Assembly: GCA_964370635.1 (NCBI GenBank)
Contig: CAYJJU010000002.1
Span: 93,237-157,236 of the forward strand
Length of the DNA stretch: 64,000 bases
DNA from: an uncultured Eubacteriales bacterium
Lineage (GTDB): Bacteria; Bacillota; Clostridia; Oscillospirales; Acutalibacteraceae
Direction: 5' to 3'
The number at the start of each line of letters is the position of its first letter. Within the stretch, counting starts at the first letter, position 1. The notes beneath the pieces are model-generated. The model was not told the DNA's origin and searched no databases. It saw only the letters and a list, made by a program, of their open reading frames with translations. Both the position numbers and the translations under genes were made by a program. Of the stretch, positions 9,335 through 64,000 are shown piece by piece.

Positions 9335-9598
9335 TACACATAATGCAGTGACGAGAATTGGTGTGAGGGTCTTTCTTTTAGAGAGTTGTCGGTTGGTGTA
9401 AGACAACAGGAAGCTTGCAGTCTGCTCATCTCGTAGCAGTTTTCCTGAACATTTATGATTATTAGGGAAAAACGGTAGTCCCCGTTACAGGACAGTATGT
9501 ATTAGCATACACTGAGTGGTCGCTGTTTAGGCGGCAATTAGAGTGGTACCGTGAAGTCTAGCCTTCATCTCTTATTAAGAGATGAAGGCTTATTTTAT
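9335..9598 (+). promoter_or_regulatory. T-box leader (tRNA-sensing riboswitch) with terminator
   Basis: AGAGAG at 9380..9385. Distal GGTTGGTGTAA loop at 9391..9401. T-box sequence AATTAGAGTGGTACCGTG at 9536..9553. A 13-bp terminator stem AGCCTTCATCTCT/AGAGATGAAGGCT at 9560..9590, followed by a T-rich tract. Lies directly upstream of ilvB. Confidence 0.85.
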
Positions 9599-20957: not shown

Positions 20958-21042
20958 GTAGGGGACGGCGTCCTCGACGTCCCTCATGGCTTACCAAAAA
21001 ATTCATTAAACCTTGCAGTGCGTCGAGGATGCCGCACCCTAC
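20958..21042. repeat. REPIN-like doublet (two inverted REP units)
   Basis: GTAGGGGACGGCGTCCTCGACG at 20958.. and CGTCGAGGATGCCGCACCCTAC at ..21042 are near reverse complements of each other. Confidence 0.7.
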
Positions 21043-21096
21043 ATTTAAGCTGATGAAAAAATAATATATGTGTAAACTTTTAGATTTAACACGACA

Positions 21097-21124
21097 GTAG
21101 GGGCGACGTTTCTCGCCCGTAGGG
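21097..21124 (+). repeat. REP unit in the leader of array gene 1
   Basis: GTAGGGGCGACGTTTCTCGCCCGTAGGG. Same architecture as the units in front of genes 4-9. Confidence 0.75.
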
Positions 21125-21151: not shown

Positions 21152-22510
21152 ATGAAAAAGTTTATATCAATATTACTCGGCACAATCTTAATAATCCTAA
21201 CAGCCTGTAGCACAGGCTCAGGCACAGAAAAGGCGAAAATCGAAATTATCCCAGAGGGCACAGAGCTTTCGGGCACGCTGATTATTTCAACCGATACTGA
21301 AGAAATAAGCGGGGTAGGGTTATTCGCGCTTGCAGATGGGTTTATGGACTTGCATCCTGGTGTTGAAATTGAAATCAACGAAACATATGACGACTATGAT
21401 TCAAGGGTGAAATATAGCGAGCAATTAAAAGTAGAAATGCTTGCGGGAGAAGCGCCTGACTTATTGCATCACTCTTTTGATTATAGCTCAAATTTTGCAA
21501 TAGGCGGACTTCTGATGGATTTGAATTCATTTATAGAAAATGATGAAACTTTTATAAAGGAAGATTATTTTATGAACTTACTTGAAGCTAGTGAGCTTGG
21601 CGGAAAGCAGTATCGTATGCCACTATACACAGCTCCGATAGAGTTTATTAGGTTTAGAGTAGATGTCTTAGAGGCCGCAGGAATTGACCCTGACACAATA
21701 GACGCAGTAGACTATAAACTACTATATGAAATTTATGACAAAGCGATAGCAAGCGGAGAAGTACCTGAACTTAAATATATAGGCAAAGACGGCTATGGGT
21801 CAATGTATTTTCTTGCACAAGAGATGGCGGCTTGTTTTGACCGTGAAACTATGACTGCAAACTTTGAAACAGAAGAATTTATAGAATATCTTGAAACAGC
21901 AAAAGCACATAATGCGCCAAGCGGTGGAGCAGATGGGTATTTGTTTATTGATGGAGTGGATGAATTAATAGAAGCTACAGACTTTTTTGCAGTGAGCGTT
22001 ACTATATCTCCATCAAATCCTCAAGAAGTCATGGGGAAAGACAGTAAAATAACAAAAGCCTATCCGGTGGTAACTTCTGCTGGGGAATTGGCGGTGCGTG
22101 ATGGACTAGTAAGCATACCGACAAATGCAAATAATCCCGGACTTGCGTGGGAGTTCATTAAATACTGTATTTATGAGAGTGAAGAAATACAAATATATTT
22201 GGACAAAGACATACCGGCAGGGTATTGGGGTGGCGATAGATTTTCAGGCTCAACACCCATAAATAAAAATAATATGGAAAAATATTTCCAAAAATGTCTT
22301 CAAGGCTTCCCCGAAGAATATATAGAAGAAACTATCTCGCTTGTATACACCTATGACCAATACGAATTGATAAGCGATATTCCGTCTTCGGATTTAAGGA
22401 CTGCGCTTTACCGGTTGGTAGTTGATTACTATAATAATTTACTAACAGCTGAAGAATGTGCAAGCGCTATGCAAGACAGAGTGGAGGTTTATTTTGCGGA
22501 GATAGAATAA
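21152..22510 (+). CDS. SBP-like lipoprotein, array copy 1 of 9
   Basis: 452 aa. Signal peptide MKKFISILLGTILIILTAC with a lipobox. Motifs GEAPDL and NPGLAWEFIKY. RBS AAAGGAGG. Confidence 0.9.
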   Translation: MKKFISILLGTILIILTACSTGSGTEKAKIEIIPEGTELSGTLIISTDTEEISGVGLFALADGFMDLHPGVEIEINETYDDYDSRVKYSEQLKVEMLAGEAPDLLHHSFDYSSNFAIGGLLMDLNSFIENDETFIKEDYFMNLLEASELGGKQYRMPLYTAPIEFIRFRVDVLEAAGIDPDTIDAVDYKLLYEIYDKAIASGEVPELKYIGKDGYGSMYFLAQEMAACFDRETMTANFETEEFIEYLETAKAHNAPSGGADGYLFIDGVDELIEATDFFAVSVTISPSNPQEVMGKDSKITKAYPVVTSAGELAVRDGLVSIPTNANNPGLAWEFIKYCIYESEEIQIYLDKDIPAGYWGGDRFSGSTPINKNNMEKYFQKCLQGFPEEYIEETISLVYTYDQYELISDIPSSDLRTALYRLVVDYYNNLLTAEECASAMQDRVEVYFAEIE

Positions 22511-22612
22511 AAAATGCGTAGCATTTTTCAGTGAAGAGTGAAGAGCGAAAAGTGAAAAGTTGTGGCGAAACCACAATTTCCAGTGTAGACACAAAACAAA
22601 AGGAGGAGCGTT
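22511..22612 (+). repeat. array junction J1 (long form with internal deletion, no REP)
   Basis: Contains the hairpin AAAATGC-GTA-GCATTTT and heptads GTGAAGA GTGAAGA GCGAAAA GTGAAAA. The empty REP site CAGTGTAG|ACACAAAAC lies at 22581..22597. Confidence 0.8.
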
Positions 22613-23992
22613 ATGAAAAAGTTTATATCAATATTACTCGGCACAATCTTAATAAGCCTAACAGCCTGTAGCACAGGCTCAGGCACAGAAAAGGCCAAAA
22701 TCGAAATTATTCCCGAGGGTACAGAACTTTCGGGCACGCTTAATATTTGGAGCGATGCAATAGCGCATCAACATACTGATATAAATTCATTAAAACTTGG
22801 TTTTGAGGAACTTCATCCCGACGTTACCATAATTATTAACGATGAAAACAGCTACGTTGACTCCGATGGAAACACACTTGATGAAAAATACATGGCGGAT
22901 TTAGGCATTAAAATGCTAAGCGGCAATGCGCCTGATTTGCTTTATAACCGCCATGACTTAGTGACAAACTTCGTGCCTGCCGGATTAATTTATGACTTAT
23001 ATGAATTTATTGAGGCAGACGATAGATTTAATACAGAAGATTATTTTGAGAAAATATTAAAACTTGGAGAAATAAATGGTGGTCTATATTCAATTGCTGC
23101 TAGTGCGCTATTTGAGTTTTATAGATTAAGCGAAGAAGTACTAACGGCGGCTGAGGTCGACCCAGATACGCTTGAAAACATAGATTATAAATTCATTTAT
23201 GATGTCTACAATAAAGCGACGGCAAGTGGCAAAGTCCCACAGCTTGAATACATAGGCGGCGGTGGAGCATTTCATGGTTTTTTTGAAGAATTGTCTGCGC
23301 ACATTGATAAAGATAACTTGACCGCTAGTTTTAACTCGCCCGAATTTATAGATTACTTAGAAATGGCAAAAACATATACGGGGCCTGACACTAGGCCAAT
23401 AGGACACATGGTGCATCCAATTTACGCTGATTATGGCTTTCCCGAGACTCTTCCGAAAGATTTTCCATATATAGGGGTTTCTGTAGCTGCTGACTTGTTA
23501 GGAGGCGCGCAGGATATGTTGGCGGAAGTTGAGGGTTTAACAAAGCCTATTCCTTACCTTAATTTAAACGGTGAATATAAAATTCTGCCCGGAAACTCAA
23601 TGTCAATACCGAGCAACTCAAAAAACCCAGAACTTGCGTGGGAATTCATCAAATACTGCGTAAGCGAAACAGAAAATTACGATGCGTCTATAAGATATTG
23701 GGGAAAGGCAAACGGAGCAAAATTTTGGAGCGGAATCCCCATAAACAAAAACAATTTAGAGCATTATATGTCACCATTACTTGCTGGATATAGCAGTGAA
23801 CAAAAAGAAGAATTTATGTCGTATATTGATACTGCTTTGAATTTACCATCCGCAGGAGCCACCCCGCCACTAGAACTTAATATAGCTATTCCCTTAATCG
23901 TTGCAGATTATTTAAATAGCATGATGACAGCCGAGGAATGTGCAAAAGCAATACAAGACAGGGTAGAGATTTATTTTGCGGAGATAGAATAA
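22613..23992 (+). CDS. SBP-like lipoprotein, array copy 2
   Basis: 459 aa. The first 41 residues are near-identical to copies 1 and 3. Motifs GNAPDL and NPELAWEFIKY. C-terminus MTAEECAKAIQDRVEIYFAEIE. Confidence 0.9.
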   Translation: MKKFISILLGTILISLTACSTGSGTEKAKIEIIPEGTELSGTLNIWSDAIAHQHTDINSLKLGFEELHPDVTIIINDENSYVDSDGNTLDEKYMADLGIKMLSGNAPDLLYNRHDLVTNFVPAGLIYDLYEFIEADDRFNTEDYFEKILKLGEINGGLYSIAASALFEFYRLSEEVLTAAEVDPDTLENIDYKFIYDVYNKATASGKVPQLEYIGGGGAFHGFFEELSAHIDKDNLTASFNSPEFIDYLEMAKTYTGPDTRPIGHMVHPIYADYGFPETLPKDFPYIGVSVAADLLGGAQDMLAEVEGLTKPIPYLNLNGEYKILPGNSMSIPSNSKNPELAWEFIKYCVSETENYDASIRYWGKANGAKFWSGIPINKNNLEHYMSPLLAGYSSEQKEEFMSYIDTALNLPSAGATPPLELNIAIPLIVADYLNSMMTAEECAKAIQDRVEIYFAEIE

Positions 23993-24127
23993 AAAACGCG
24001 TAGCATTTTTCAGTGAAGAGTGAAAAGTGAAGAGTGAAAAGTTGTGGCGAAATGCTTCGCATTTTTTGATTACAAATTGTTAAAACCACAATTTCCAGTG
24101 TAGACACAAAACAAAAGGAGGAGCGGT
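23993..24127 (+). repeat. array junction J2 (long form, no REP)
   Basis: Hairpin, 2 x GTGAAGAGTGAAAA, then hairpin GCGAA-ATGC-TTCGC plus T6. Empty REP site at 24096..24112. Confidence 0.8.
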
Positions 24128-25501
24128 ATGAAAAAGTTTATATCAATATTACTCGGCACAATCTTAATAAGCCTAACAGCCTGTAGCACAGGTTCAGGCA
24201 CAGAAAAGGCGAAAATCGAAATTATCCCAGAGGGCACAGAGCTTTCTGGCACTCTTGAAATTTGGAGCGACTCAGAAAACACAGGTAGAACATCTATAGA
24301 GGGTTTACGGGACGGATTTGAAGAAATTCACCCTGAGGTTGAGATAATTATTAATGACGGTCATAATTATCTTGATAATTACGGAGCTCTGGACGATGAA
24401 AAATTCAAGGCGGATTTAGGTATTAAAATGCTAAGTGGTGATGCGCCTGATTTGCTATATAACGAAAAAGATTATGTTACAAATTTTGTGCCTTCCGGAC
24501 TAATTTATGACTTATATGAATTTATCGAGGCAGACGACAGCTTTAATACGGAAGATTATTTTGAAGAGATATTAAGGCTTGGAGAAATTAATGGTAGTCT
24601 ATACTCAATTGCCGATGGTGCTACATTTGATTTTCACAGGCATAATATAGACGTATTAGAAGCAGCAGATGTTCAGCCCGATACGCTTGAAAGTATAGAC
24701 TATAAATTCATTTACGATGTCTACAATAAGGCGATGGCAAGTGGTGAAGTCCCGTATTTTACACATATAGGTATATACGGAAAGGCTTATGGGTTTTTGC
24801 AGGAATTGCCTGTCTACTTTAATAAAGAAACTTTGACTGCTAACTTTAACACAGCCGAATTTATCGATTATCTTGAAACTGTAAATGCCTATACTGCACA
24901 GGACACAATGCCAATAGGTAATTTTGATTCCTATAATAACTCTGATTATTCCATTCCGATACCTGAGGACTATCCTTATATCGGCATGAGCGTATCAACA
25001 CATTTGCCATATGGTCCGGAAGGGGTGTTAAGAGAGGACGAAAGCTTAACAAAGCCAATTCCCTTACTTAATTCAAGCGGTGAATATCAAATTAATCCAG
25101 GCAATGCAATGTCAATACCAAGTAATGCAGAAAATCCACAGCTTGCGTGGGAGTTCATTAAATACTGCATAAGTGAAGTAGAAAATATGGATACATCTTT
25201 ACTAAGTATAGGAAAAGTAAACGGAACAAAATATTCGGGCTATATGCCGGTAAATAAAAATAATGCCGAGACCTATATTAATGCATCTCTAGTAGGATAT
25301 AGTGATGAACAGAAAGAAGAGTTTATGTCGTATATTGATAAGGCTTTGGATTTACAGATAGCAGGCGCAGAGCCACCACATGAGCTTCTTGCCGCCGTAG
25401 TAGAGATATTAGAAGATTATCTAAACGACCTAATGACCGCAGAAGAATGCGCAAAGGCTATGCAGGACAGGGCGGAGATTTATTTTGCAGAGATAGGGTG
25501 A
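24128..25501 (+). CDS. SBP-like lipoprotein, array copy 3
   Basis: 457 aa with lipobox LTAC and motifs GDAPDL and NPQLAWEFIKY. Confidence 0.9.
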   Translation: MKKFISILLGTILISLTACSTGSGTEKAKIEIIPEGTELSGTLEIWSDSENTGRTSIEGLRDGFEEIHPEVEIIINDGHNYLDNYGALDDEKFKADLGIKMLSGDAPDLLYNEKDYVTNFVPSGLIYDLYEFIEADDSFNTEDYFEEILRLGEINGSLYSIADGATFDFHRHNIDVLEAADVQPDTLESIDYKFIYDVYNKAMASGEVPYFTHIGIYGKAYGFLQELPVYFNKETLTANFNTAEFIDYLETVNAYTAQDTMPIGNFDSYNNSDYSIPIPEDYPYIGMSVSTHLPYGPEGVLREDESLTKPIPLLNSSGEYQINPGNAMSIPSNAENPQLAWEFIKYCISEVENMDTSLLSIGKVNGTKYSGYMPVNKNNAETYINASLVGYSDEQKEEFMSYIDKALDLQIAGAEPPHELLAAVVEILEDYLNDLMTAEECAKAMQDRAEIYFAEIG

Positions 25502-25663
25502 AAAATGCGTAGCATTTTTTAGTGAAGAGTGAAAAATGAAGAGTGAAAAGTTGTGGCGAAATGCTTCGCATTTTTTGATTATAAATTGTCAAAACCACGG
25601 TTTCATTGTAGGGGCGACGTTTCGTCGCCCGTGAGGTTTACGCAAAACAAAAGGAGGAGCGGT
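25502..25663 (+). repeat. array junction J3 (long form with REP at 25608..25636)
   Basis: Full module: stop-adjacent hairpin, 2 heptad pairs, hairpin plus T6, then GTAGGGGCGACGTTTCGTCGCCCGTGAGG, then AAAGGAGG. Confidence 0.85.
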
Positions 25664-27058
25664 ATGAAAAAGTTTATATCAATAATTTTAATTTTAAGCT
25701 TAATTTCATTAATATCTTGCACCGACCAAAGTGCGAAGATTTATTCTGAGAATATGGGAAGCGGTGACAGTGTGAGCGATTTGGAAAGTGATGCAAAAAC
25801 AGAACTTTCAGGCACACTTGAAATTTCAACGGCACTAGTTCAAGACGATGCAATGGGTTGGGGTGCTTCGATTCGTAAATTTCAAGAGCTTTATCCCGAT
25901 GTGGAAGTGATTTTTAACGACACGGCTATAGATGTTTTGTCGGCAAGTTTTGAATCATATGACATTGCAATGCAAAAGTATCAACAAGACTTAAGCCTTA
26001 AGATGATTTCGGGCGGCGCTCCCGATTTGATTGTAAACATGAGCGACTATACAACTCAGTTTGTGCCAAGCGGACTAATTTATGATTTAAACAAATTTAT
26101 AGAAAACGACCCCGAATTTATTTATGAAGATTACTATATGAACGTCATAGAAGGGCAAGAAATAAACGGTGGTCTATACAGAATGCCCACCGAGTTTACA
26201 TTTAAATCTATAAGATTTAGAAAAGATGTGTTTGACAATTTAGGGATAAGCGAAGACGAAATTGACACCGTAGACTATAAATTCTTGTATGATTTATATT
26301 TTGACACAGTAGAAAGCGAAAATTTACCTGATGTTAAACAAATATTATTCGACGTTTTTGACGGCAAGGCGTTAATGTACAACGAAGAGCGTGCCGTGGC
26401 TTTTGACTCTAACACAATGACGGTAAATTTTAATGCACCCGAATTTATAGAATACTTAGAAACGACAAATAAATACGAGCAAAACAGCCCATTTGCATTT
26501 TTAGCTTATGAGGGCGAATTATTTTCGCAAGATGGTTATATAGCAGTCGGCATGAATGTCGCACCCTCGCCATCTGATGCGCTGATCGATGAAAAAGAAA
26601 ATGTGACCAAGGCATATCCCGTTGTCACCTCTCAAGGAGAACTCATAGTAGAGGCAGTTGAAAGCATGACTATCCCAAAAGACGCTAAAAACCCCGAACT
26701 TGCATGGGAATTTATTAAATTCCACATATCCGAGGGCGAAGTTACATTTAAAACAGAAGACGGCCATGAGTATGGAAGCAAGGGTAATGGTTTAATACAA
26801 ATAAATAGGAATAACCATTTAAACAATGCAAAAAGCACTTTCGAGTATTTTAAAAGAGATGAAGATTTTACAGCCAAATATTTTTCATATTTAGAAAGTG
26901 CCCTTGAGCTACCTGTCGCGGCAGGTTTAACCGACATCCAGTTATCAGGTGCATTAAACTTACTTCAAATGGACTTTTATAACGGCCTAATGACAGCAGA
27001 AGAATGTGCCAAAGCTATGCAGGATAGGGCGGAGATTTATTTTGCAGAAATAGAATAA
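25664..27058 (+). CDS. SBP-like lipoprotein, array copy 4
   Basis: 464 aa from the ATG at 25664 (RBS AAAGGAGGAGCGGT). Lipobox LISC. Motifs GGAPDL and NPELAWEFIKF. The ORF-track start at 25553 reads through the repeat. Confidence 0.9.
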   Translation: MKKFISIILILSLISLISCTDQSAKIYSENMGSGDSVSDLESDAKTELSGTLEISTALVQDDAMGWGASIRKFQELYPDVEVIFNDTAIDVLSASFESYDIAMQKYQQDLSLKMISGGAPDLIVNMSDYTTQFVPSGLIYDLNKFIENDPEFIYEDYYMNVIEGQEINGGLYRMPTEFTFKSIRFRKDVFDNLGISEDEIDTVDYKFLYDLYFDTVESENLPDVKQILFDVFDGKALMYNEERAVAFDSNTMTVNFNAPEFIEYLETTNKYEQNSPFAFLAYEGELFSQDGYIAVGMNVAPSPSDALIDEKENVTKAYPVVTSQGELIVEAVESMTIPKDAKNPELAWEFIKFHISEGEVTFKTEDGHEYGSKGNGLIQINRNNHLNNAKSTFEYFKRDEDFTAKYFSYLESALELPVAAGLTDIQLSGALNLLQMDFYNGLMTAEECAKAMQDRAEIYFAEIE

Positions 27059-27119
27059 AAAGTGTAGGGGCGACGTTTCGTCGCCCGTGAGGTTTACGCA
27101 AAACAAAAGGAGAAGACTT
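27059..27119 (+). repeat. array junction J4 (61-nt short form: REP + RBS only)
   Basis: TAA AAAGTGTAGGGGCGACGTTTCGTCGCCCGTGAGG...AAAGGAGAAG. REP at 27064..27092. Confidence 0.85.
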
Positions 27120-28535
27120 ATGAAAAAGTTTATATCAATAATTTTAATTTTAAGCTTAATTTCATTAATATCCTGCACCGACCGAGTTGCCGAGATTTAT
27201 TCTGAGAATATGATAAGTACTGCGCAGGAGAGTGACACTGTATTTGAGGAAGAAGAAAGCGGTACTGACACAAGCAACAATGTGCTGGTGATATCTTCTG
27301 ATTTAGCGCCAATGGAATTCTCAGGGGTGTTGCCCCTTGTTGAGGGATTTAAAAAACTCCACCCCGATGTTGAAATTATTTTGAACGAAACCGGCATAGA
27401 CCCCTTCACTGTCGGACCTCTTGAAAGCGTTATTGTATATGAAAAATACATGGCCGACTTAAGCGTTAAAATACTTTCAGGCGAAGCTCCGGATTTGCTT
27501 TTTAGCACAGGCGACTCCAATAGTGACTTTGCCTTTAGCGGACTCTTGTATGACCTTAATGAGTTTATAGAAAATGATGAAACTTTTATACAAGAAGATT
27601 TTTTCATGGAAGTATTAAATTCATGGGAGCTTGAAGACGCACTTTACAGCATGCCGACGGCATTTACATTTGGATTTGCTCGATTTAGGCAAGATGCACT
27701 TGATGCAGTGGGAATAAGTCTTGAGGGCGTGGAAAGTGTAGACTACAGATTTCTATTTGATACATATTACACCGTACTTGACAGTGGGTTATTTCCTGAA
27801 ATCACACATTTGGGCAGAGAAGAATACGTAGGTAAGGGAATTTTAACATTTGAGGAGCGAACAAGAAACTTTGATAAAGAGAGTATGACAGTAAATTTTG
27901 AAAGTGAAGAATTTTTAGATTTTCTTAATACTACTAACGGATACCTTGTCTCAGATAAGCCGTTTGGAAGTTTTTACATAGATGGCCCGGATAGTCTATT
28001 TGAGAGAGATGACTATTTAGTAGAAGGTTCGTACGCAACACTTTCCAGAGTCTTTAGTTTAACCGGTAAGCATGCGAAGGCAACAAAGGCTGTTCCGATT
28101 ACCACATCTGAGGGAGAATTATTACTTAGCGGGGATAATTTAAGTATTCCAAAAGATGCCAAAAACGCCGAGCTTGCATGGGAATTTATTAAATACTGCA
28201 TATATGAAAGCGAAAAAGTGTCAACTTCTTATGATACCATCGGAGAGTGGGAGGGAGATAGATTTTATGATGCTATTCCTCTAAACAAAAATAACTTCCA
28301 GAAAATATGTGATGCGTATACAGTAGGTGAAACACAAGAGGCGTATATGACAGAGTATTATGACTTTGTAATAAAAGCACTCGAGTTACCGCTAGCAACA
28401 AGAATTCCATCATCAACTCTAGGTTATGCGCTAGATGCAATACAAATGGATTTCTATAACGGCCTAATGACCGCAGAAGAATGCGCTAAAGCTATGCAGG
28501 ACAGAGCGGAACTTTACTTTGCGGAGATAGGGTAA
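27120..28535 (+). CDS. SBP-like lipoprotein, array copy 5
   Basis: 471 aa from the ATG at 27120. Lipobox LISC. Motifs GEAPDL and NAELAWEFIKY. Confidence 0.9.
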   Translation: MKKFISIILILSLISLISCTDRVAEIYSENMISTAQESDTVFEEEESGTDTSNNVLVISSDLAPMEFSGVLPLVEGFKKLHPDVEIILNETGIDPFTVGPLESVIVYEKYMADLSVKILSGEAPDLLFSTGDSNSDFAFSGLLYDLNEFIENDETFIQEDFFMEVLNSWELEDALYSMPTAFTFGFARFRQDALDAVGISLEGVESVDYRFLFDTYYTVLDSGLFPEITHLGREEYVGKGILTFEERTRNFDKESMTVNFESEEFLDFLNTTNGYLVSDKPFGSFYIDGPDSLFERDDYLVEGSYATLSRVFSLTGKHAKATKAVPITTSEGELLLSGDNLSIPKDAKNAELAWEFIKYCIYESEKVSTSYDTIGEWEGDRFYDAIPLNKNNFQKICDAYTVGETQEAYMTEYYDFVIKALELPLATRIPSSTLGYALDAIQMDFYNGLMTAEECAKAMQDRAELYFAEIG

Positions 28536-28697
28536 AAAATGCGTAGCATTTTTTAGTGAAGAGTGAAAAGTGAAGAGTGAAAAGTTGTGGCGAAATGCTT
28601 CGCATTTTTTGATTACAAATTGTTAAAACCACGGTTTCATTGTAGGGGCGACGTTTCGTCGCCCGTGAGGTTTACGCAAAACAAAAGGAGAAGACTT
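28536..28697 (+). repeat. array junction J5 (long form, REP at 28642..28670)
   Basis: Same module order as J3. Confidence 0.85.
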
Positions 28698-30104
28698 ATG
28701 AAAAAGTTTATATCAATAGTTTTAATTTTAAGCTTAATATCATTAATATCTTGCACCGACCAAAGTGCCCAGATTTATTCTGAGAATATGGGAAGTGCCC
28801 AGCAGGAAAGCGACACCGAATCAGAAGACAGTGACGATACTAATAATAATGTGCTGGTGATATCTTCTGATTTAGCGCCAATGGAATTCTCCGGGGTGTT
28901 GCCCCTTGTTGAGGGGTTTAAAAAACTTCACCCAGATGTTGAAATTATAATAAGCGACACGGGTGTAGATATGATGTCGTTAACAGCCGATGAAGTGCCG
29001 ATTGCATTTAACAAATACATGGACGACTTAAGTGTTAAAATGCTCGCAGGCGAAGCTCCAGATTTGATTTACGGCACAAGTGACTATAATAACGACTTTG
29101 CCTTTAGCGGGCTTTTATATGACCTCAATGAATTCATTGACAATGATGAAACGTTCATAAAAGAAGATTTTTTCATGAACGTGCTAGAGGCCTGGGAAAT
29201 TGCAGGTGGACTGCATAGCATGCCTAGCATTTTAATGTTCAACTCTGTGCGCTTTAGGCAAGATGTGCTTGATGGCGTGGGGATAAGTCTTGATGAAATA
29301 GAAAGTGCAGACTATAAATTTTTATTTGACACATATTATAAAGTTCTTGACAGTGGCTTATTCCCTGAAATCACTCATTTAGGCAGAGAGGAATATGTTG
29401 GAAAAGCTCCTCTTACATCTGATGAAATGGCAAGTGCATTTGATAGAGAAAGTATGACTGTAAGTTTTGAAAGTGAAGAATTTTTAGACTTTCTTAACAC
29501 TACTAACGGGTACGATGTCACAGACATTCCATTTGGTTTTTTCGCTCTAGACGGCTCAGATTTTCTCTTCCAAAGAGATGAATATTTAGTAGAGGGCTCA
29601 ATTACAAGTGTCAGTAAAGCAACTTATTTAGTTTCAACACAAGCGAACGCCTCTAATGCTGTTCCAATTACCACATCCGAGGGAGAACTCTTCGTAACAG
29701 GGAATAACTTCAGTATTCCAAAAGATGCCCAAAACCCTGAGCTTGCATGGGAATTTATAAAATACTGCATATATGAAAGCGAAACTGTTTCGACTGCCTT
29801 GGACGCTATTGGAGAATGGGAGGGCGATAGATTTGAAAGTGCTATCCCCATAAATAAGAATAATTTCAAAAAATTGTGTGATGCGTACGCAGTAGGGGAA
29901 ACACAAGAGGCGTATATGACAGACTTTTATGATTATGTAGTAAAATCACTGGAGTTACCTATTGCAACAAAATTGCCTTCAGCGACTTTAGCCCGTACTA
30001 TAAGTAAAATACAAGTAGATTTCTATAACGGCTTAATGACCGCAGAAGAATGTGCAAATGCAATGCAAGACAGGGCGGAGATTTATTTTGCGGAGATAGG
30101 GTAA
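28698..30104 (+). CDS. SBP-like lipoprotein, array copy 6
   Basis: 468 aa from the ATG at 28698, with a lipobox, an acidic linker SAQQESDTESEDSDD, and motifs GEAPDL and NPELAWEFIKY. Confidence 0.9.
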   Translation: MKKFISIVLILSLISLISCTDQSAQIYSENMGSAQQESDTESEDSDDTNNNVLVISSDLAPMEFSGVLPLVEGFKKLHPDVEIIISDTGVDMMSLTADEVPIAFNKYMDDLSVKMLAGEAPDLIYGTSDYNNDFAFSGLLYDLNEFIDNDETFIKEDFFMNVLEAWEIAGGLHSMPSILMFNSVRFRQDVLDGVGISLDEIESADYKFLFDTYYKVLDSGLFPEITHLGREEYVGKAPLTSDEMASAFDRESMTVSFESEEFLDFLNTTNGYDVTDIPFGFFALDGSDFLFQRDEYLVEGSITSVSKATYLVSTQANASNAVPITTSEGELFVTGNNFSIPKDAQNPELAWEFIKYCIYESETVSTALDAIGEWEGDRFESAIPINKNNFKKLCDAYAVGETQEAYMTDFYDYVVKSLELPIATKLPSATLARTISKIQVDFYNGLMTAEECANAMQDRAEIYFAEIG

Positions 30105-30266
30105 AAAATGCGTAGCATTTTTCAGTGAAGAGTGAAAAGTGAAGAGTGAAAAGTTGTGGCGAAATGCTTCGCATTTTTTGATTATAAATTGTCAAAACCA
30201 CGGTTTCATTGTAGGGGCGACGTTTCGTCGCCCGTGAGGTTTACGCAAAACAAAAGGAGGAGCGGT
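30105..30266 (+). repeat. array junction J6 (long form, REP at 30211..30239)
   Basis: Same module order as J3. Confidence 0.85.
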
Positions 30267-31673
30267 ATGAAAAAGTTTATATCAATAATTTTAATTTTAA
30301 GCTTAATTTCATTAATATCTTGCACCGACCAAAGTGCGAAGATTTATTCTGAGAATATGGGAAGTGCCCAGCAGGAAAGCGACACCGAATCAGAAGAAGA
30401 CAGTGACGATACTAATAATGTGCTGGTGATATCTTCTGATCTTATACCACAAGAATTTGCAGGTTTTGGCCCCCTTGTTGAGGGCTTTGAAAAACTCCAC
30501 CCCGATGTTGAAATTATAATTAACGATACGGGTGTAGACATGATGGCGTTAACCCCTGATGAAACAACACTTGCATTTAACAAATACATGGACGACTTAA
30601 GCGTTAAAATGCTCGCAGGCGAAGCTCCGGATTTGATTTTTAGCACAGGTGATTTTAATAACGACTTTGCATTTAGCGGACTTTTATATGACCTTAATGA
30701 ATTCATAGAAAATGATGAAACGTTCATAAAAGAAGATTTTTTCATGGAAGTATTAAAGGCATGGGAAGTTGCAGGTGGACTGCACAGCATGCCCACAACT
30801 TTTGAGTTTTCATCGGTTCGTTTTAGGCAAGATGTGCTTGATGGCGTGGGAATAAGCCTTGACGAAATAGAAAGTGCAGACTATAAATTTTTATTTGACA
30901 CATATTATACAGTACTTGACAGTGGATTATTCCCTGAAATCACTCATTTAGGCAGAGAGCAATATGTTGGAAAAGGAATTTTAGCGTTAGAGGAAATATC
31001 GAATGCATTTGATAAAGAAACAATGACTGTAAATTTTGAAGGTGAAGAATTTTTAGACTACCTCAACACTACATTAAATTACGAAGCTGGACAATATCCG
31101 TTCGGCAGTTTTATGATGGCTGGTGCGGATACATTGTTTGAGCGAGAAGAGTATTTAGCCGAAGGTTCAGGCTCATATACTGACGATGCAGATTGCTTGG
31201 TTTCAGAAAAAGATAATGCCTCAAAGGCTATTCCCCTTACAACATCTGGGGGAGAGTTATTAGTAAAAGGGAATAATTTAAGCATTCCAAAAGATGCCAA
31301 AAACCCTGAGCTTGCATGGGAATTTATTAAATACTGTATATACGAGAGTGAAACAGTTTCAATCGCATTTGACGCTATTGGAGAATGGGACGGAGACAGA
31401 TTCTTTAACTCAATTCCAATAAATAGAAATAATTTTAAGAAAATATGTGATGCTTATTCAATAGGAGACCTACAAACGGTTTACATGACAGAGTATCATG
31501 ATTATGTAATAAAATCACTTGAATTACCCATTGCGACAAGAATGCCCTCAAATATTTTAGTAAAAGAGTTGAATAATTTACAAACAGATTTTTATAACGG
31601 CCTAATGACAGCAGAAGAATGTGCAAAAGCCATGCAGGATAGGGCGGAGATTTATTTTGCAGAAATAGAATAA
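30267..31673 (+). CDS. SBP-like lipoprotein, array copy 7
   Basis: 468 aa from the ATG at 30267. Same motifs as the other copies. Confidence 0.9.
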   Translation: MKKFISIILILSLISLISCTDQSAKIYSENMGSAQQESDTESEEDSDDTNNVLVISSDLIPQEFAGFGPLVEGFEKLHPDVEIIINDTGVDMMALTPDETTLAFNKYMDDLSVKMLAGEAPDLIFSTGDFNNDFAFSGLLYDLNEFIENDETFIKEDFFMEVLKAWEVAGGLHSMPTTFEFSSVRFRQDVLDGVGISLDEIESADYKFLFDTYYTVLDSGLFPEITHLGREQYVGKGILALEEISNAFDKETMTVNFEGEEFLDYLNTTLNYEAGQYPFGSFMMAGADTLFEREEYLAEGSGSYTDDADCLVSEKDNASKAIPLTTSGGELLVKGNNLSIPKDAKNPELAWEFIKYCIYESETVSIAFDAIGEWDGDRFFNSIPINRNNFKKICDAYSIGDLQTVYMTEYHDYVIKSLELPIATRMPSNILVKELNNLQTDFYNGLMTAEECAKAMQDRAEIYFAEIE

Positions 31674-31734
31674 AAAGTGTAGGGGCGACGTTTCGTCGCC
31701 CGTGAGGTTTACGCAAAACAAAAGGAGGAGCGGT
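31674..31734 (+). repeat. array junction J7 (61-nt short form, REP at 31679..31707)
   Basis: Nearly identical to J4. Confidence 0.85.
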
Positions 31735-33192
31735 ATGAAAAAGTTTATATCAATAATTTTAATTTTAAGCTTAATTTCATTAATATCTTGCACCGACCAA
31801 AGTGCGAAGATTTATTCTGAGAATATGGGAAGTGCTAATCAAAGCGAAGAAGATGAAAACACTGTCAGTGATGAAGGGGCAGCAGAAAGTACACTTTCGG
31901 GGACTTTAAAAATATCGTCTTCTTCTCAGCCGGAATATTTTTACCCATGGGCTAATACACTTAGAGAATTTAATAAAGTTCATCCAAATGTCGTGATAGA
32001 ATATAATGACACGGCGGTTCCTGCATTTGATTTGTCGCCGGAGGAATATATGCTCGCTTTAGAAAAATACGAAGACGATTTAGGTGTTAATATGGTTGCA
32101 GGAAATCCTCTTGATTTGATAATAAACAGTAAAGATTACACCAGTCAATTTGTTCCAAGTGGCATAATATATGATTTATACGAATTTATAGAAAACGACC
32201 CTGAGTTTATAAAAGAGCATTACTTTATGAATATTTTGGAACAAAGTGAAATAAAGGGTGGACTATATGTGCTTCCGACAGAAATAATATTTGAGTCGGT
32301 AAGAATTAGAAGCGATGTTTTGGAGTATTTTGAGATTGATGAAAACAATATCGAAACAGTCGACTATAAGTTTATGTACGATTTGTATTTTAAAACAGTT
32401 GAAAGCGGAGCCTTTCCAGAAATTAAATATATGGTGAGAGAGGAATTTTCAAGTAAAGCAGTATTGCTAGATGAAGAATATGCAGCGGCGTATGACCCTG
32501 AAACAATGACTGTGAACTTTGAAACACCCGAATTTATAGAATATTTAGAAACTACAAAAAAATTTGATGCAGTGGAAAATCCTTTTCAACTGAGAGCTGC
32601 AATAGGCGATATAGGGGTTTTTGCCACTGATGACTATTTGTTTGAAATTTCACAGTCTGTTGGTCAGGGTGCAAAATTTTATATGGGAGAAATGGAAAAT
32701 GCAACACGTCCTTTTCCACTTGTATCATCTACAGGTCAGCTAGTACCCACAGTTTTCGGGGGAATAAGTATCCCTAAAAATGCAGAAAACGCAGAGCTTG
32801 CGTGGGAGTTTATAAAGTTTTATATAGGCGAGACAGAAGAAGCGAATTATTATGACGAGGAAGAAAACGTAATTGGAACTAGAAGTAGCGGTGCAATATT
32901 TATAAACAGAGAGCTTTACAAGGTAGACCAAATGAACGTAGTAATTCAAGAGCTTGTTTACAGAGGTATAAACGAAGAGGAAGTTACGTACACAGTGGAG
33001 GAAATAGAAGGACTTATTTCATATGTAGAAAACGCATTGGCTATTCCACTTACTTTAGGGATTACAGATGTAGCGCTAAACAGTACACTCAGAGAAATAC
33101 AATTCGACTACTACAGCGACTTAATGACAGCAGAAGAATGTGCAAAAGCTATGCAGGATAGGGCGGAGATTTATTTTGCGGAGATTGAGTAA
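31735..33192 (+). CDS. SBP-like lipoprotein, array copy 8
   Basis: 485 aa from the ATG at 31735. Closest by eye to copy 4. Motifs GNPLDL and NAELAWEFIKF. Confidence 0.9.
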   Translation: MKKFISIILILSLISLISCTDQSAKIYSENMGSANQSEEDENTVSDEGAAESTLSGTLKISSSSQPEYFYPWANTLREFNKVHPNVVIEYNDTAVPAFDLSPEEYMLALEKYEDDLGVNMVAGNPLDLIINSKDYTSQFVPSGIIYDLYEFIENDPEFIKEHYFMNILEQSEIKGGLYVLPTEIIFESVRIRSDVLEYFEIDENNIETVDYKFMYDLYFKTVESGAFPEIKYMVREEFSSKAVLLDEEYAAAYDPETMTVNFETPEFIEYLETTKKFDAVENPFQLRAAIGDIGVFATDDYLFEISQSVGQGAKFYMGEMENATRPFPLVSSTGQLVPTVFGGISIPKNAENAELAWEFIKFYIGETEEANYYDEEENVIGTRSSGAIFINRELYKVDQMNVVIQELVYRGINEEEVTYTVEEIEGLISYVENALAIPLTLGITDVALNSTLREIQFDYYSDLMTAEECAKAMQDRAEIYFAEIE

Positions 33193-33365
33193 AAAGTGAA
33201 GAGTGAAAAGTGAAGAGTGAAAAGTGAAGAGTGAAAAGTGAAGAGTGAAAAGTTGTGGCGAAATGCTTCGCATTTTTTGATTATAAATTGTCAAAACCAC
33301 GGTTTCATTGTAGGGGCGACGTTTCGTCGCCCGTGAGGTTTACGCAAAACAAAAGGAGGAGCGGT
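33193..33365 (+). repeat. array junction J8 (expanded heptad repeat, REP at 33310..33338)
   Basis: Four exact GTGAAGAGTGAAAA units at 33196..33251, versus two elsewhere. It lacks the stop-adjacent AAAATGC hairpin. Confidence 0.85.
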
Positions 33366-34769
33366 ATGAAAAAGTTTATATCAATAATTTTAATTTTAAG
33401 CTTAATTTCATTAATATCTTGCACCGACCAAAGTGCCCAGATTTATTCTGAGAATATGGGAAGTGCCCAGCAGGAGAGCGACACCGAATCAGAAGACAGT
33501 GACGATACTAATAATGTGCTTGTGATATCTACCGAGTATGTACCACAAGAATATGCAGGTTTTGGTTCTCTTATTGAAGGCTTTAAAAAACTCCATCCCG
33601 AGGTTGAAGTTATATTAAACGACACGAGTGTGGATACGATGTCCTTAACACCTGATGAAACAACACTTGCACTTAGTAAATACATGGATGACTTAAGTGT
33701 TAAATTGCTCGCAGGCGAAGCTCCGGATTTGATTTTTTGCTTGGGTGATTTTAATAACGACTTTGCCTTTAGCGGACTTTTATATGACCTTAATGAGTTT
33801 ATTGAAAATGATGAAACGTTTGTAAAAGAAGATTTTTTCATGGAAGTGCTAGAGGCCTGGGAAATTGCAGGGGGGCTTCATAGCATGCCTACAATTTTTC
33901 TATTCAACTCTGTGCGTTTTAGACAAGATGTGCTTGATGGCGTGGGGATAAGCGTTGATGAGATGGAAAGTGTGGACTATAAGTTTTTATTTGATACATA
34001 TTATACGGTTCTTGACAGTGGATTATTCCCTGAAATCACTCATTTGGGTAGGCCGGAATATGTAGGAAAAGGTCCTCTTACATCTGAAGAAAGGGCAAGT
34101 GCATTTGATAGAGAAAGTATGACTGTAAGTTTTGAAAGTGAAGAATTTTTAGATTTTCTTAACACTACTAATGGGTACGATATCACAGACATTCCATTTG
34201 GAACTTTAAATATCGATGGTGCAGATTTTTTCTTTCAAAGAGATGAATATTTAGTAGAAGGAGCAACTTCAGTCACAGGCAACGCAGTTCAATTAATTTC
34301 AAATCAAGCGAATGCCTCAAAGGTTATTCCGATTACCACATCTGAGGGAGAACTTTTAATCAAAGGAAATAATGTGAGCATTCCAAAAGATGCCAAAAAC
34401 CCTGAACTTGCATGGGAATTTATAAAATACTGCATATATGAGAGTGAAACCGTGTCAACTTCTTATGATACCATCGGAGAATGGGAGGGCGATAGGTTTG
34501 AAAATTTTGTTCCTATAAATAAAAATAATTTCAAAAAATTGTGCGATGCGTACGCAGTAGGCGAAACGCAAGAGGTGTATATGGCAGACTTTTATGATTA
34601 TGTAATAAAAACACTGGAGCTACCCATTGCAACAAAGTTGCCTTCAACGACTTTAGGCCGTGCTTTAGATGCAATACAAATGGACTTTTATAACGGCCTA
34701 ATGACAGCAGAAGAATGCGCAAAGGCTATGCAGGACAGGGCGGAGATTTATTTTGCGGAGATTGAGTAA
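33366..34769 (+). CDS. SBP-like lipoprotein, array copy 9
   Basis: 467 aa from the ATG at 33366. Same motifs as the other copies. Confidence 0.9.
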   Translation: MKKFISIILILSLISLISCTDQSAQIYSENMGSAQQESDTESEDSDDTNNVLVISTEYVPQEYAGFGSLIEGFKKLHPEVEVILNDTSVDTMSLTPDETTLALSKYMDDLSVKLLAGEAPDLIFCLGDFNNDFAFSGLLYDLNEFIENDETFVKEDFFMEVLEAWEIAGGLHSMPTIFLFNSVRFRQDVLDGVGISVDEMESVDYKFLFDTYYTVLDSGLFPEITHLGRPEYVGKGPLTSEERASAFDRESMTVSFESEEFLDFLNTTNGYDITDIPFGTLNIDGADFFFQRDEYLVEGATSVTGNAVQLISNQANASKVIPITTSEGELLIKGNNVSIPKDAKNPELAWEFIKYCIYESETVSTSYDTIGEWEGDRFENFVPINKNNFKKLCDAYAVGETQEVYMADFYDYVIKTLELPIATKLPSTTLGRALDAIQMDFYNGLMTAEECAKAMQDRAEIYFAEIE

Positions 34770-44315: not shown

Positions 44316-44547
44316 AGCAAATATTTCCTGCCTGATGCGCCTATCATGCACAAATAACCCTACACTCATTTTTTAGGGAGCTTCTCTCCTGTTGAGGGAT
44401 TGCAGACCTCCCGGCCCGGTTTTTTCCGACGTCGGACGAAGGGAGCGCGAGCCAACAGGGTGAGCACCCACCTGCTTTTTGGTAGCAGGTTATTGAGAAG
44501 CAAGTTACGGTCAGGTGGGAATTTTTATTTTAAGTAAGAGTGAAGAA

Positions 44548-51599: not shown

Positions 51600-52127
51600 T
51601 TACAGCTCCTTATGATATTTGTCAAGTTCCCATTTTAACGGATTTGTTTCGATATACTCCCAAAACTTTTGATATTCTGCTTCGTTTCGGATTATTCTAT
51701 CGTGGTATGATTTTTGCCACACCTTCACCACCGTAGTGAACGCATTGTATGCGTTCTTATCCCTCTGTTTTGCATGTATACCCTTGCTAACAGACGATTT
51801 AAAAATTTGAATTATCTTTGGTACATCCAGTTTTGCATGTTCTCCACTTGGAACGCATACAATGCGTTCCCTACATATTAGCAAAATTAAATGCACATGA
51901 TTTGGCATGATGATATACTTCTCAACACTAATATCATCATATAAATTTGACAAAATTTCTACATTATGATTTACAACATTGCCATATTGATTTAATTTCA
52001 TTTGCCCGTTCACAATCTCACCGAATAAACATTCTCTGTCATGCGTGCAAATTGTAACAAAATATGCTCCGTTTTGGCTGTAATCGTAATCTCTCAGCCT
52101 AAGCTGTTTGCGATACTGCATATCCAT
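51600..52127 (-). CDS. RAYT-like Y1 HUH transposase (IS200-like fold, solitary)
   Basis: 175 aa with HUH motif PNHVHLIL and C-terminal WQKSYHDRIIRNEAEYQKFWEYIETNPLKWELD. No tnpB partner and no IS ends seen. Confidence 0.8.
   Translation of the reverse strand: MDMQYRKQLRLRDYDYSQNGAYFVTICTHDRECLFGEIVNGQMKLNQYGNVVNHNVEILSNLYDDISVEKYIIMPNHVHLILLICRERIVCVPSGEHAKLDVPKIIQIFKSSVSKGIHAKQRDKNAYNAFTTVVKVWQKSYHDRIIRNEAEYQKFWEYIETNPLKWELDKYHKEL
51850..51875 (-). repeat. REP-like unit embedded in the RAYT ORF
   Basis: On the + strand: GGAACGCAT-ACA-ATGCGTTCC-CTACA. On the coding strand: TGTAGG + 9-bp hairpin, read in frame as CRERIVCVP. Confidence 0.7.
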
Positions 52128-60115: not shown

Positions 60116-60176
60116 TGTAGGGGCGGTCATCGGCCGCTTGAAAGACAACGGTCGCCCACACAGGGGCGCCCCTACA
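60116..60176. repeat. REPIN-like doublet between valS and serS
   Basis: TGTAGGGGCGGTCATCGGCCGC...GGTCGCCCACACAGGGGCGCCCCTACA. The termini TGTAGGGGCG and CGCCCCTACA are inverted. Confidence 0.8.
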
Positions 60177-62226: not shown

Positions 62227-62479
62227 TTTCATCTTAATATCAAAGTAAAGGGCTTATCGCATTAACGGATTATTTCGTCAAAATAAATAAACCATAGTAG
62301 CTTCCATGCCTGTCCGAAAACATCAATTTTATACATATTTTTAGGGAGGGCGTGGAAGCCCTCCCCTACTTTTTGTTTATTTTCACCTTAATGCGATAGC
62401 CTCTTTACTTGTGGTTTTTTCAACAATCTGAAAGGAGCTGTGACGAAATAGAATAATTTTCGTCACATTGACGGACAAA

Positions 62480-62552
62480 TGTAGGGGCGTGACCGCCCGA
62501 AACCTTGGATTTTACCATTAGTTTCGGGCGAACACACAGGTTCGCCCCTACA
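62480..62552. repeat. REPIN-like doublet with nested palindrome
   Basis: TGTAGGGGCGTGACCGCCCGAAAC...GTTTCGGGCGAACACACAGGTTCGCCCCTACA. Confidence 0.8.
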
Positions 62553-62613: not shown

Positions 62614-64000
62614 TTAGGTCAATTCTAATAATTTGTTATTAATCCTTAGCATTGCTTCTGTATAATATAACATTTCTTCGGTACTCATTTCTTGTGTTTC
62701 AAGTACGGTTAATTTCTCCATGGTATCGGCATACTCTTCGATAAAATCCATATAATCACCTAAAAGGCTTACATCACTTTCTGATTCGCTATATTTTTTC
62801 ATAAATTCAATATATTCATCAAAAAACGCTTCATATGTATCAATTGCCTCTTTAAATTCAGGGCGAATACCATCACCAGCATCTCCGCTTGTTTCATCAT
62901 CAGAAGCATTATCAATAATTTCGTTATTATTATCTAAATTGTCTTCTCCATCTAATGTTTCAGTTTCTACATTATCCTCAGTTGCATTACTACTGGTAAT
63001 AATCGCATCAATATCATAATTATCATTCCAAATGATTTCGCTATTGACATCCAACCATATGCTATACAAGTCAGAATTAGCATCTAACCAAGTACTATAA
63101 ATATTTGAATTAGCATCTAACCAGTCGCTATATGCTTCGCTGGAAATATCAAGCCATTCGCTATAATCTTCTGTATCTAATGCATCTGCGATTATACCAT
63201 CATAATATGTTTCATATAAAGCATCGAAAATATTTTCATATATTCTTTCGTAGTAACTATCAAATGCTTCTTCATATATAGTGTCGTAAAAATACTCCAT
63301 TGCGGTTTCAATTGCATCAGCATCGTCAGTATCGACAACTGAAACTACCTCTTTGTAATAATCAACTGACTTGAGCGCAATTTGCTCAAACAGTTCGTTT
63401 GTTTGTTCTTGAGTAAGAGCATACCATTCTGAAATCAACTGACGATTAGAAACATAATCGGCATAAGAATCGCCAACTTCATCATAAACACTGATTAATT
63501 CATTTTCAATTGTGGATATTGTAGTCTCAAATTCATTCTGCATCTCAGTTGTCAAATTAATTAACGATTCGTGCAGTTCAACACTTGCATCAAAATTCAA
63601 AATTGCTTCAATATCAAAATTATCATTCCGAAATTCGCTTCTAACATCTGTCCAGTTTTCATAAATCTCTGAACGAGCATCACTCCACTGCTCATACGTT
63701 TCAGAGCGAGCATCGCTCCAGTTTTCATATGCCTCTGAACGAGTATCACTCCACTCGCTATATTCAACTGTATCATTAGCATCATCTATTATACCGTCAT
63801 AATACATATCATATATGTCATCATAGATATCTTCATATATGCTATCATAAAATTCATCATAAGCATATTCGTAAACATCATCATAAAAGTCGTCCATAGC
63901 ATCTTCTATTGCGTCTGAGTCAGTGTTATCGATAGTTGCCACGACTTCTCTGAAATAGTCGTACGAGTGTTGAGTTGTTCTTTCTGATAAAGCAATGAAC
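62614..64000 (-). CDS. highly acidic Tyr/Asp/Glu-rich internal-repeat protein (5' end outside window)
   Basis: The frame stays open to the window edge: the 19 codons upstream of the ORF-track GTG read FIALSERTTQHSYDYFREV with no stop. Two copies of a module with a period of about 200 aa are visible. The C-terminal segment of about 85 aa is helical and non-repetitive. Confidence 0.75.
   Translation of the reverse strand, partial: FIALSERTTQHSYDYFREVVATIDNTDSDAIEDAMDDFYDDVYEYAYDEFYDSIYEDIYDDIYDMYYDGIIDDANDTVEYSEWSDTRSEAYENWSDARSETYEQWSDARSEIYENWTDVRSEFRNDNFDIEAILNFDASVELHESLINLTTEMQNEFETTISTIENELISVYDEVGDSYADYVSNRQLISEWYALTQEQTNELFEQIALKSVDYYKEVVSVVDTDDADAIETAMEYFYDTIYEEAFDSYYERIYENIFDALYETYYDGIIADALDTEDYSEWLDISSEAYSDWLDANSNIYSTWLDANSDLYSIWLDVNSEIIWNDNYDIDAIITSSNATEDNVETETLDGEDNLDNNNEIIDNASDDETSGDAGDGIRPEFKEAIDTYEAFFDEYIEFMKKYSESESDVSLLGDYMDFIEEYADTMEKLTVLETQEMSTEEMLYYTEAMLRINNKLLELT

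Follow-up and report, generated by a model that had tools for sequence, protein, structure and literature searches.

An oriented pair of REP palindromes inside the open reading frame of a RAYT-like transposase gene from an uncultured Eubacteriales bacterium

The stretch of DNA analysed here, which we call the window, comprises 64,000 nt from an uncultured Eubacteriales bacterium of the Acutalibacteraceae (GenBank assembly GCA_964370635.1, contig CAYJJU010000002.1, positions 93,237 to 157,236 of the forward strand). On its minus strand, at 51600..52127, lies an intact gene for a 175-aa Y1 (HUH) tyrosine transposase that resembles the REP-associated tyrosine transposases (RAYTs), REP standing for repetitive extragenic palindrome. 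A preliminary description of the window had recognised this gene and a single REP-like unit within its open reading frame (ORF), read as CRERIVCVP. The unit is real, but it is not alone; the ORF bears an oriented, in-frame pair of the REP of its own enzyme clade, which is kept at the nucleotide level and is placed in permissive loops of the protein.

The identity first proposed for the gene is borne out. The protein contains MPNHVHLIL, of which PNHVHLIL had been read as the HUH motif, and a C-terminal WQKSYHD...WEYIETNPLKW. The codons of the HUH motif (H77-V-H79; 51891..51899, minus strand) stand at the start of a beta-strand covering residues 77-84, and H77, H79, Y158 and N162 are invariant in an alignment with 31 homologues. 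A phmmer alignment to 4ER8, the structure of the E. coli RAYT (TnpA-REP), pairs Y158 with Y115 and N162 with N119, a residue named in PMC6006769; it points to Y158 (51654..51656, minus strand) as the predicted catalytic tyrosine, with N162 four residues downstream, and so to the tyrosine of WEYIETN and not that of SYHD. The NCBIfam RAYT model (NF047646, REP_Tyr_transpos) scores 68.7 bits on the ORF (E 4.8e-19), below its curated cut-off of 80, while the IS200 model (NF033573) lies far under this at 13 bits and does not reach its cut-off of 55; Pfam Y1_Tnp gives 17.4 bits, under its gathering score of 23. Foldseek matches of the AlphaFold2 (AF2) model (pLDDT 80.8) are IS200/IS605 Y1 transposases and 4ER8, the latter having the best query TM-score (0.57, root-mean-square deviation 3.8 Å), and some sources label homologues 'REP element-mobilizing transposase RayT'.

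The gene lies 11 nt after a TAL/FSA gene and 2 nt before a NUDIX gene, downstream of a PFL-like gene, with a methyltransferase gene also among its neighbours. A 96%-identical homologue occupies the syntenic position, in the same gene context, in another assembly (L081; homologous loci are denoted by such numbers). The 64-kb window holds no second Y1 gene, and neither tnpB nor the left and right ends (LE/RE) of an insertion sequence (IS) were found with the RAYT gene, which agrees with its earlier portrayal as solitary. Nor is it flanked by REPs, as in the arrangement called a REPtron, the intergenic gaps being just 11 and 2 nt. Homologues occur in 6 of 72,556 plasmid records and in one phage record. 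This scarcity, the solitary position in a housekeeping context and the higher score of the RAYT model support the original placement with RAYTs and not with ordinary IS200 elements; the window gene is a domesticated RAYT-family Y1/HUH enzyme in a housekeeping operon, present in single copy within the 64 kb.

The first of the two palindromes, REP1, occupies 51850..51875 on the minus strand and consists of TGTAG followed by GGAACGCAT-tgt-ATGCGTTCC; the whole unit, TGTAGGGAACGCATTGTATGCGTTCC (read 51875->51850), has a 9-bp stem and a 3-nt loop, is GTAG-tagged on the coding strand and encodes CRERIVCVP (aa 85-93). The second, REP2, which the preliminary description had missed, is inverted relative to REP1 and lies at 51733..51757 on the plus strand (GTAGtGAACGCATTGTATGCGTTC). 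It reads GTAGtGAACGCATtgtATGCGTTC on the template strand, hence as hairpin-aCTAC on the coding strand, where it encodes KNAYNAFTT (aa ~123-131). Its outer base pair has decayed, and the two units are identical at 23 of 25 positions, with stems of 8-9 bp. Along the coding strand the order is therefore GTAG-hairpin, 92 nt, hairpin-CTAC, an inverted pair with GTAG outward. In the AF2 model REP1 codes for the start of a low-confidence loop, residues 85-101, after the HUH strand, and REP2 for part of another, residues 125-141, after the helix 102-124; homologues without the units have short loops in both places. The spacer (51758..51849, minus strand) encodes the rest of the first loop and the conserved helix 102-124 (VPKIIQIFKSS...), which is also present in homologues that have no REP2. 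The spacer is thus native coding sequence, and an origin of the pair by insertion of a whole REP doublet is ruled out for the window clade. A 161-nt region containing REP1 and REP2 is predicted to fold, as single-stranded RNA or DNA, into one long REP1:REP2 stem. For RNA the stem has ~24 bp and the energy is -56.9 kcal/mol (z -6.3), a value that no shuffled sequence out of 200 reached; for DNA the energy is -32.7 kcal/mol (z -6.6). No Rfam family matches the in-ORF hairpins.

Palindromes of a different kind, AT-rich and untagged or weakly tagged, occur in the region coding for the conserved N-terminal motif, both in the window (GTAGAAATTTtgtcAAATTT, 51943-51962, minus strand) and in several relatives (L082, L005, L084, L008, L010, L026, L069), one example being GTGCATATTtcattacAATATGCAC, which encodes GAYFITICT; they may be no more than a by-product of coding for the peptide motif.

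The same in-ORF pair is present in six further genes, at 50-59% protein identity and in differing genomic contexts. Among the close relatives, the in-ORF unit type also stands on both flanks of the gene, inverted, at L082 and L084, which is the classic REPtron layout; it adjoins the gene on one side at L083, L086 and L109, and has more copies in intergenic DNA at L085, L086 and L109. Because the unit both flanks the genes of relatives and recurs between other genes, the hairpin in the ORF is a true REP of this enzyme clade, as had been supposed of REP1. In a codon alignment of the close relatives REP1 is the best-conserved 26-nt segment of the gene (mean pairwise identity 92%, against 65% overall), with 100% identity at third codon positions, for which the overall figure is 51%. 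The sole differences within REP1 are compensatory, GGAACGCAT/ATGCGTTCC giving way to GGAATGCAT/ATGCATTCC or GGTACGCAT/ATGCGTACC with a change of amino acids, and the frame in which REP2 is read differs among genes (NAYNAF versus GTHTMRSL). The conservation of REP1, its compensatory changes and the two frames of REP2 together argue that the constraint is on the nucleic acid and not on the peptide. The preliminary description had considered that homologues from REP-free genomes might share the hairpin as a conserved structural segment; homologues do share it, but what is conserved is nucleic acid rather than peptide, and their genomes hold this REP extragenically as well.

A broader sample comprised 101 non-redundant homologous genes with their DNA. 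The sources were GTDB species representatives from many phyla (cultured isolates included), metagenomes and the close relatives; protein identity did not exceed 48% in the scan of genome contigs or 47% in the metagenome scan (18 loci), the close relatives being added individually. An in-ORF unit was defined as a GTAG- or CTAC-tagged hairpin of at least 8 pairs with at most one mismatch. By this definition 69 of the 101 genes contain at least one unit, so that a REP inside the ORF, first thought unusual, is the rule within the protein family. Cultured isolates are among the carriers, and RAYTs of this kind are present, for example, in Geosporobacter ferrireducens (P0019), Chakrabartyella piscis (P0061, P0098) and Fonticella tunisiensis DSM 24455 (L028). 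Units recur at three sites. Loop A separates two N-terminal strands, loop B comes directly after the HUH strand, and loop C precedes the WQ strand. As for the main arrangements, in 23 genes, many of them from Clostridia, units in A and B bracket the HUH-coding segment; eight genes have the B and C arrangement of the window gene; another eight carry a single long GTAG...CTAC palindrome in loop B; and the remaining unit-bearing genes have single units. Where there are two units, GTAG comes first and CTAC second in 33 of 36 genes, with the opposite order in the other three, and the orientation of the loop B unit varies with its partner loop. The frame in which GTAG would be read as TAG is never used.

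The two units of one gene resemble each other far more closely than units of different genes (91.7% versus 53.8% identity), with no difference over 26 nt in 12 of the 33 pairs. Tagged perfect hairpins reach 1.93 per kb in RAYT ORFs. On the 300-nt flanks their density is 1.31 per kb; it drops to 0.61 across the rest of the non-ORF DNA and to 0.034 within the other long ORFs. This 57-fold excess over other ORFs, with the results of shuffling the window reported below, rules out a chance origin of the units. The in-ORF 13-mer (GTAG plus 9 nt) is found again outside the ORF at the same locus for 22 of 56 genes, at 33 times its density in other loci, and in loci with several extragenic copies (L073, L055, L017, L039, L092) the in-ORF unit is the commonest extragenic variant. 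REP identity also tracks protein identity, calculated without the REP-coded residues (rho 0.215; none of 500 Mantel permutations was as high).

Several loci show related peculiarities. The RAYT gene of L086 combines two classes of stem among its three in-ORF units (noted at 10115-10140), the loop A unit being GC-rich (GTAGGGGCGACC...) and those of loops B and C of GGAATGC type, and in the same locus (14538-14800), as in the L109 flanks, the extragenic GGAATGCAT REP forms direct repeats with a period of ~104-120 nt, not inverted doublets. At L018 a partial, internally deleted tandem RAYT copy (9729-9935) lies upstream of the intact gene (~10031-10522), starting exactly at the loop A GTAG REP and ending at the HDHIIRD region; similar partial ORF copies adjoin the RAYT genes of L007 and L021. 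The truncated homologue P0029 was considered as a natural precise-excision allele and rejected, being a frameshifted fragment with no clean deletion between units.

We put at about one in two the probability that the in-ORF pair is the enzyme's cognate REP pair, serving as a built-in substrate or recognition site. Two studies (PMC3333891, PMC3479197) report that E. coli TnpA-REP binds the REP hairpin with its 5' GTAG on single-stranded DNA, and that it cuts beside REP and inverted REP, in the latter case overlapping CTAC; by analogy, the in-ORF pair would offer two processable ends on either strand. Such a pair would link the enzyme to its REP, the two being inherited and transferred as one unit, and since it lies inside a gene under purifying selection, it could not be lost without loss of the enzyme. 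The in-ORF copy might seed or homogenise the extragenic REP population, and the pair would probably also feed back on its own gene, whether through binding or cleavage of the gene by the RAYT or through the 24-bp REP1:REP2 stem in the mRNA.

A number of observations weigh against this reading. About one third of the 101 homologues have no clear in-ORF unit, and the ORF of the type member, E. coli rayT, contains no tagged hairpin; in-ORF REPs are therefore dispensable for RAYT function. Most extragenic copies are single and lack the coding spacer, so that the in-ORF pair as a whole is evidently not the entity that is copied; extragenic REP doublets with a coding spacer were sought and none was found, only short matches to a REP and its flank and partial gene duplicates (L018, L007). 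Copying could run either from the ORF outwards or from outside into the ORF, and gene conversion from extragenic copies could mimic selection at the nucleotide level. The proposed uses of the pair, whether binding, cleavage, seeding or feedback, are all ones that we infer. Finally, the 64-kb window has no stem of type GGAACGCAT outside the ORF; this, the absence of flanking copies and the decay of REP2 suggest that in the window lineage the pair may be a relic.

A stronger proposal, which we hold only tentatively, is that RAYT genes of this family are self-contained replicators, in which a processable pair carries part of the catalytic core as cargo and the enzyme cuts its own gene on single-stranded DNA. 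The cargo would be the HUH strand in the clade with units in loops A and B, and the helix 102-124 in the window clade. If this were true, the ORF would hold a protected master copy that seeds and homogenises genomic REPs and moves with the gene on horizontal transfer; it would provide a built-in negative feedback or on/off switch at the level of DNA; and it would present a 'barcode' of each enzyme's DNA specificity, readable inside its own ORF.

Alternatively, the units might be tolerated passengers, inserted by the enzyme, acting preferentially in cis, into its own gene while this is single-stranded during transcription or replication, surviving only in frame and in permissive loops and having no function, their likeness to genomic REPs being kept by re-insertion or gene conversion. 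The confinement of units to disordered loops and the variability of their reading frames are as such an origin would have it; the immediate flanks of RAYT genes are REP-rich too (1.3 per kb), decayed remnants and unit-free genes occur among the homologues, and L021 has a whole REPIN-like insertion (REPINs being REP doublets forming hairpins) in one loop and, just upstream, a second copy identical to it. Moreover, in-frame REP insertions are known in other genes (PMC3733652). Independent insertion, however, should not yield an order of GTAG then CTAC in a ratio of 33:3 across two loops, nor a loop B unit that flips with its partner; passengers should hardly be the best-conserved DNA of the gene in the window clade, changing only in compensatory fashion; and the units have persisted in the window lineage with no extragenic copy in 64 kb. 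On this balance we regard passengers as unlikely.

Less probable still is regulation purely in cis at the level of RNA, whereby the ~24-bp mRNA stem, or two local hairpins, would limit translation or recruit RNase III and so hold a potentially genotoxic nuclease at a low level, the likeness to REPs being secondary. The stability of the predicted long-range stem, which no shuffle equalled, is in keeping with this, as are the nucleotide conservation with compensatory changes and the covariation of units within one gene, and PMC3733652 cites a precedent, the restraint of IS200 tnpA by a hairpin in its mRNA. Yet pairing alone does not explain why GTAG always faces outward, nor why the units equal the extragenic REPs of their genome; many genes manage with one long GTAG...CTAC palindrome or with one unit, coupled translation would melt the structures, and there is no Rfam match. 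That the gene is an ordinary IS200/IS605 tnpA, or that a conserved peptide motif happens to be encoded palindromically, is very improbable, for the weak Y1_Tnp match, a fold equally near ISDra2 and IS608 TnpA and the return of CRERIVCVP-like peptides in the closest homologues stand against a single copy in the window without LE/RE or tnpB and 2-11 nt from housekeeping genes, the preference of the profile models for RAYTs, the rarity of homologues on plasmids and phages, and, ruling out the peptide motif, peptides that differ wholly between lineages while the hairpin persists, the two frames of REP2 and the compensation seen in the DNA.

The cognate-pair reading can be set beside several systems that share parts of it. 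REPtrons (Nunvar 2010, PMC2817692; Ton-Hoang 2012, PMC3333891) are RAYT or TnpA-REP genes with inverted flanking REPs. The window gene shares with them the Y1/HUH enzyme, the Y...N catalytic helix and the GTAG-tagged hairpins and, as far as the 64 kb show, the single chromosomal copy, and its relatives L082 and L084 are fully REPtron-like; it differs in that its REPs are within the ORF and translated, and enclose a stretch native to the enzyme, with none on the flanks. REPINs (Bertels & Rainey 2011, PMC3116915) are non-autonomous mobile doublets of two inverted REPs. Two inverted REPs with a short gap that could fold as one long hairpin are what the in-ORF pair presents, with GTAG outward, arms that evolve in concert and a long hairpin predicted for the single strand; this is also the architecture of the extragenic doublets of the window at 60116-60176 and 62480-62552. 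Unlike a REPIN, it is not an extragenic, non-coding doublet in many copies, for it sits in an ORF, has no second copy in the window and has a conserved protein-coding spacer (the A and B clade has the HUH strand there, the window clade the helix). With IS200/IS605 elements the window gene shares the enzyme fold and, presumably, the recognition of hairpins on single-stranded DNA and two processing sites that lie on the same strand. In those elements, by contrast, tnpA itself does not contain the hairpins, these are not inverted repeats of one another, and the IS is multi-copy and mobile, the window gene being solitary and embedded in an operon.

In-frame palindromic repeats within proteins are known also from the Rickettsia palindromic elements. 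Comparable too are the 'REP-decorated' proteins (Di Nocera 2013, PMC3733652), in which palindromes of the GTAG superfamily are tolerated in frame; both units of the window gene are likewise GTAG-tagged palindromes read in frame within a conserved protein, but here the host gene encodes the enzyme that belongs to the REP, units recur at set sites and the pairs are oriented. The intragenic REPs of that study lie in helicases and in repair, RNA and tRNA enzymes, its table being without any transposase. For RAYT genes it describes REPs or terminal inverted repeats (TIRs) on the flanks or in overlap with the gene ends. Bertels et al. (PMC5581495) scored only extragenic 16-mers flanking RAYT genes, with low values for the widely distributed RAYT Groups 1 and 4. 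The accessible portions of Nunvar 2010, Ton-Hoang 2012, Corneloup 2021 and Quentin 2018 make no mention of internal REPs in RAYT ORFs, and we found no report of them in the open-access literature. REPtrons, REPINs and intragenic REPs being already known, it is the oriented REP pair within the ORF that appears, within that literature, to be undescribed.

Outside the RAYT gene the window has REPs of its own. The extragenic units listed in the preliminary description are all present, and the type is enriched over shuffled sequence: TGTAGGG occurs 20 times (3.75 +/- 2.1 expected), and GTAG directly before a perfect stem of 6 bp or more 19 times (2.9 +/- 1.6 expected). A cluster at 20958-20983 (+), 21019-21043 (-) and 21097-21118 (+) lies upstream of the first of nine tandem paralogues for SBP_bac_1 extracellular solute-binding proteins (SBPs; 21152-34769, ~1.5 kb each). 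Six units of identical sequence, GTAGGGGCGACGtttCGTCGCCC, begin at 25608, 27064, 28642, 30211, 31679 and 33310 (to 33332) on the plus strand in the spacers of this array; being identical and placed between tandem genes, they have been duplicated with the genes and are not independent. In all six spacers the GTAG REP is accompanied by a conserved leader, GTGAGGTTTACGCAAAACAAAAGGAGG, before the start codon. Doublets with GTAG outward lie between valS and serS (60116..60176) and at 62480-62552, and to those previously listed we add a single unit at 62344-62369 (-).

These extragenic units are of at least five different stem types. The preliminary description had counted the in-gene unit among this TGTAGGGG family, an assignment that does not hold, for only the GTAGGG head is common to both, the stem being GGAACGCAT in the ORF and GGGGCG... 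outside it. Bearing on whether the window enzyme might act on these GC-rich REPs are the common GTAGGG head and the GC-rich loop A unit of the L086 gene. Extragenic units of the window (20958-20983 and, on the minus strand, 62526-62551) have counterparts within other RAYT ORFs: GTAGGGGACGGCGTCCTCGACGTCCC agrees at all 26 nt with in-ORF units that A and B subfamily RAYT genes carry in L100 and L002, and GTAGGGGCGAACCTGTGTGTTCGCCC is identical to an in-ORF unit of a Bacteroidales RAYT (L068), so that identical REP types are present in unrelated phyla. The window genome may hold a second RAYT elsewhere. Among other features of the window are a T-box leader (9339-9575, plus strand, 114 bits) and a 6S RNA gene (44322-44525, plus strand, 52.6 bits), both above the Rfam gathering scores, and 33-nt tandem repeats (repeat family D18) at 63645-63755 in a minus-strand DUF6591 gene.

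RAYTs with their REPs and REPINs are the best-studied case in which a domesticated transposase is accompanied by miniature repeats that are inherited vertically as a population, and how enzymes and repeats are matched, and how REPs are generated, are standing questions of that field. In-ORF REPs also appear to illustrate clearly how selection on DNA structure, and not on the peptide, can dictate the sequence of part of a protein. If the REP within the ORF is the cognate one, the specificity of thousands of RAYTs would be readable from the gene, even on short metagenomic contigs; and enzyme and substrate would be physically inseparable, which would offer an account both of the long-term persistence of the association and of the identical REP types found in unrelated phyla.

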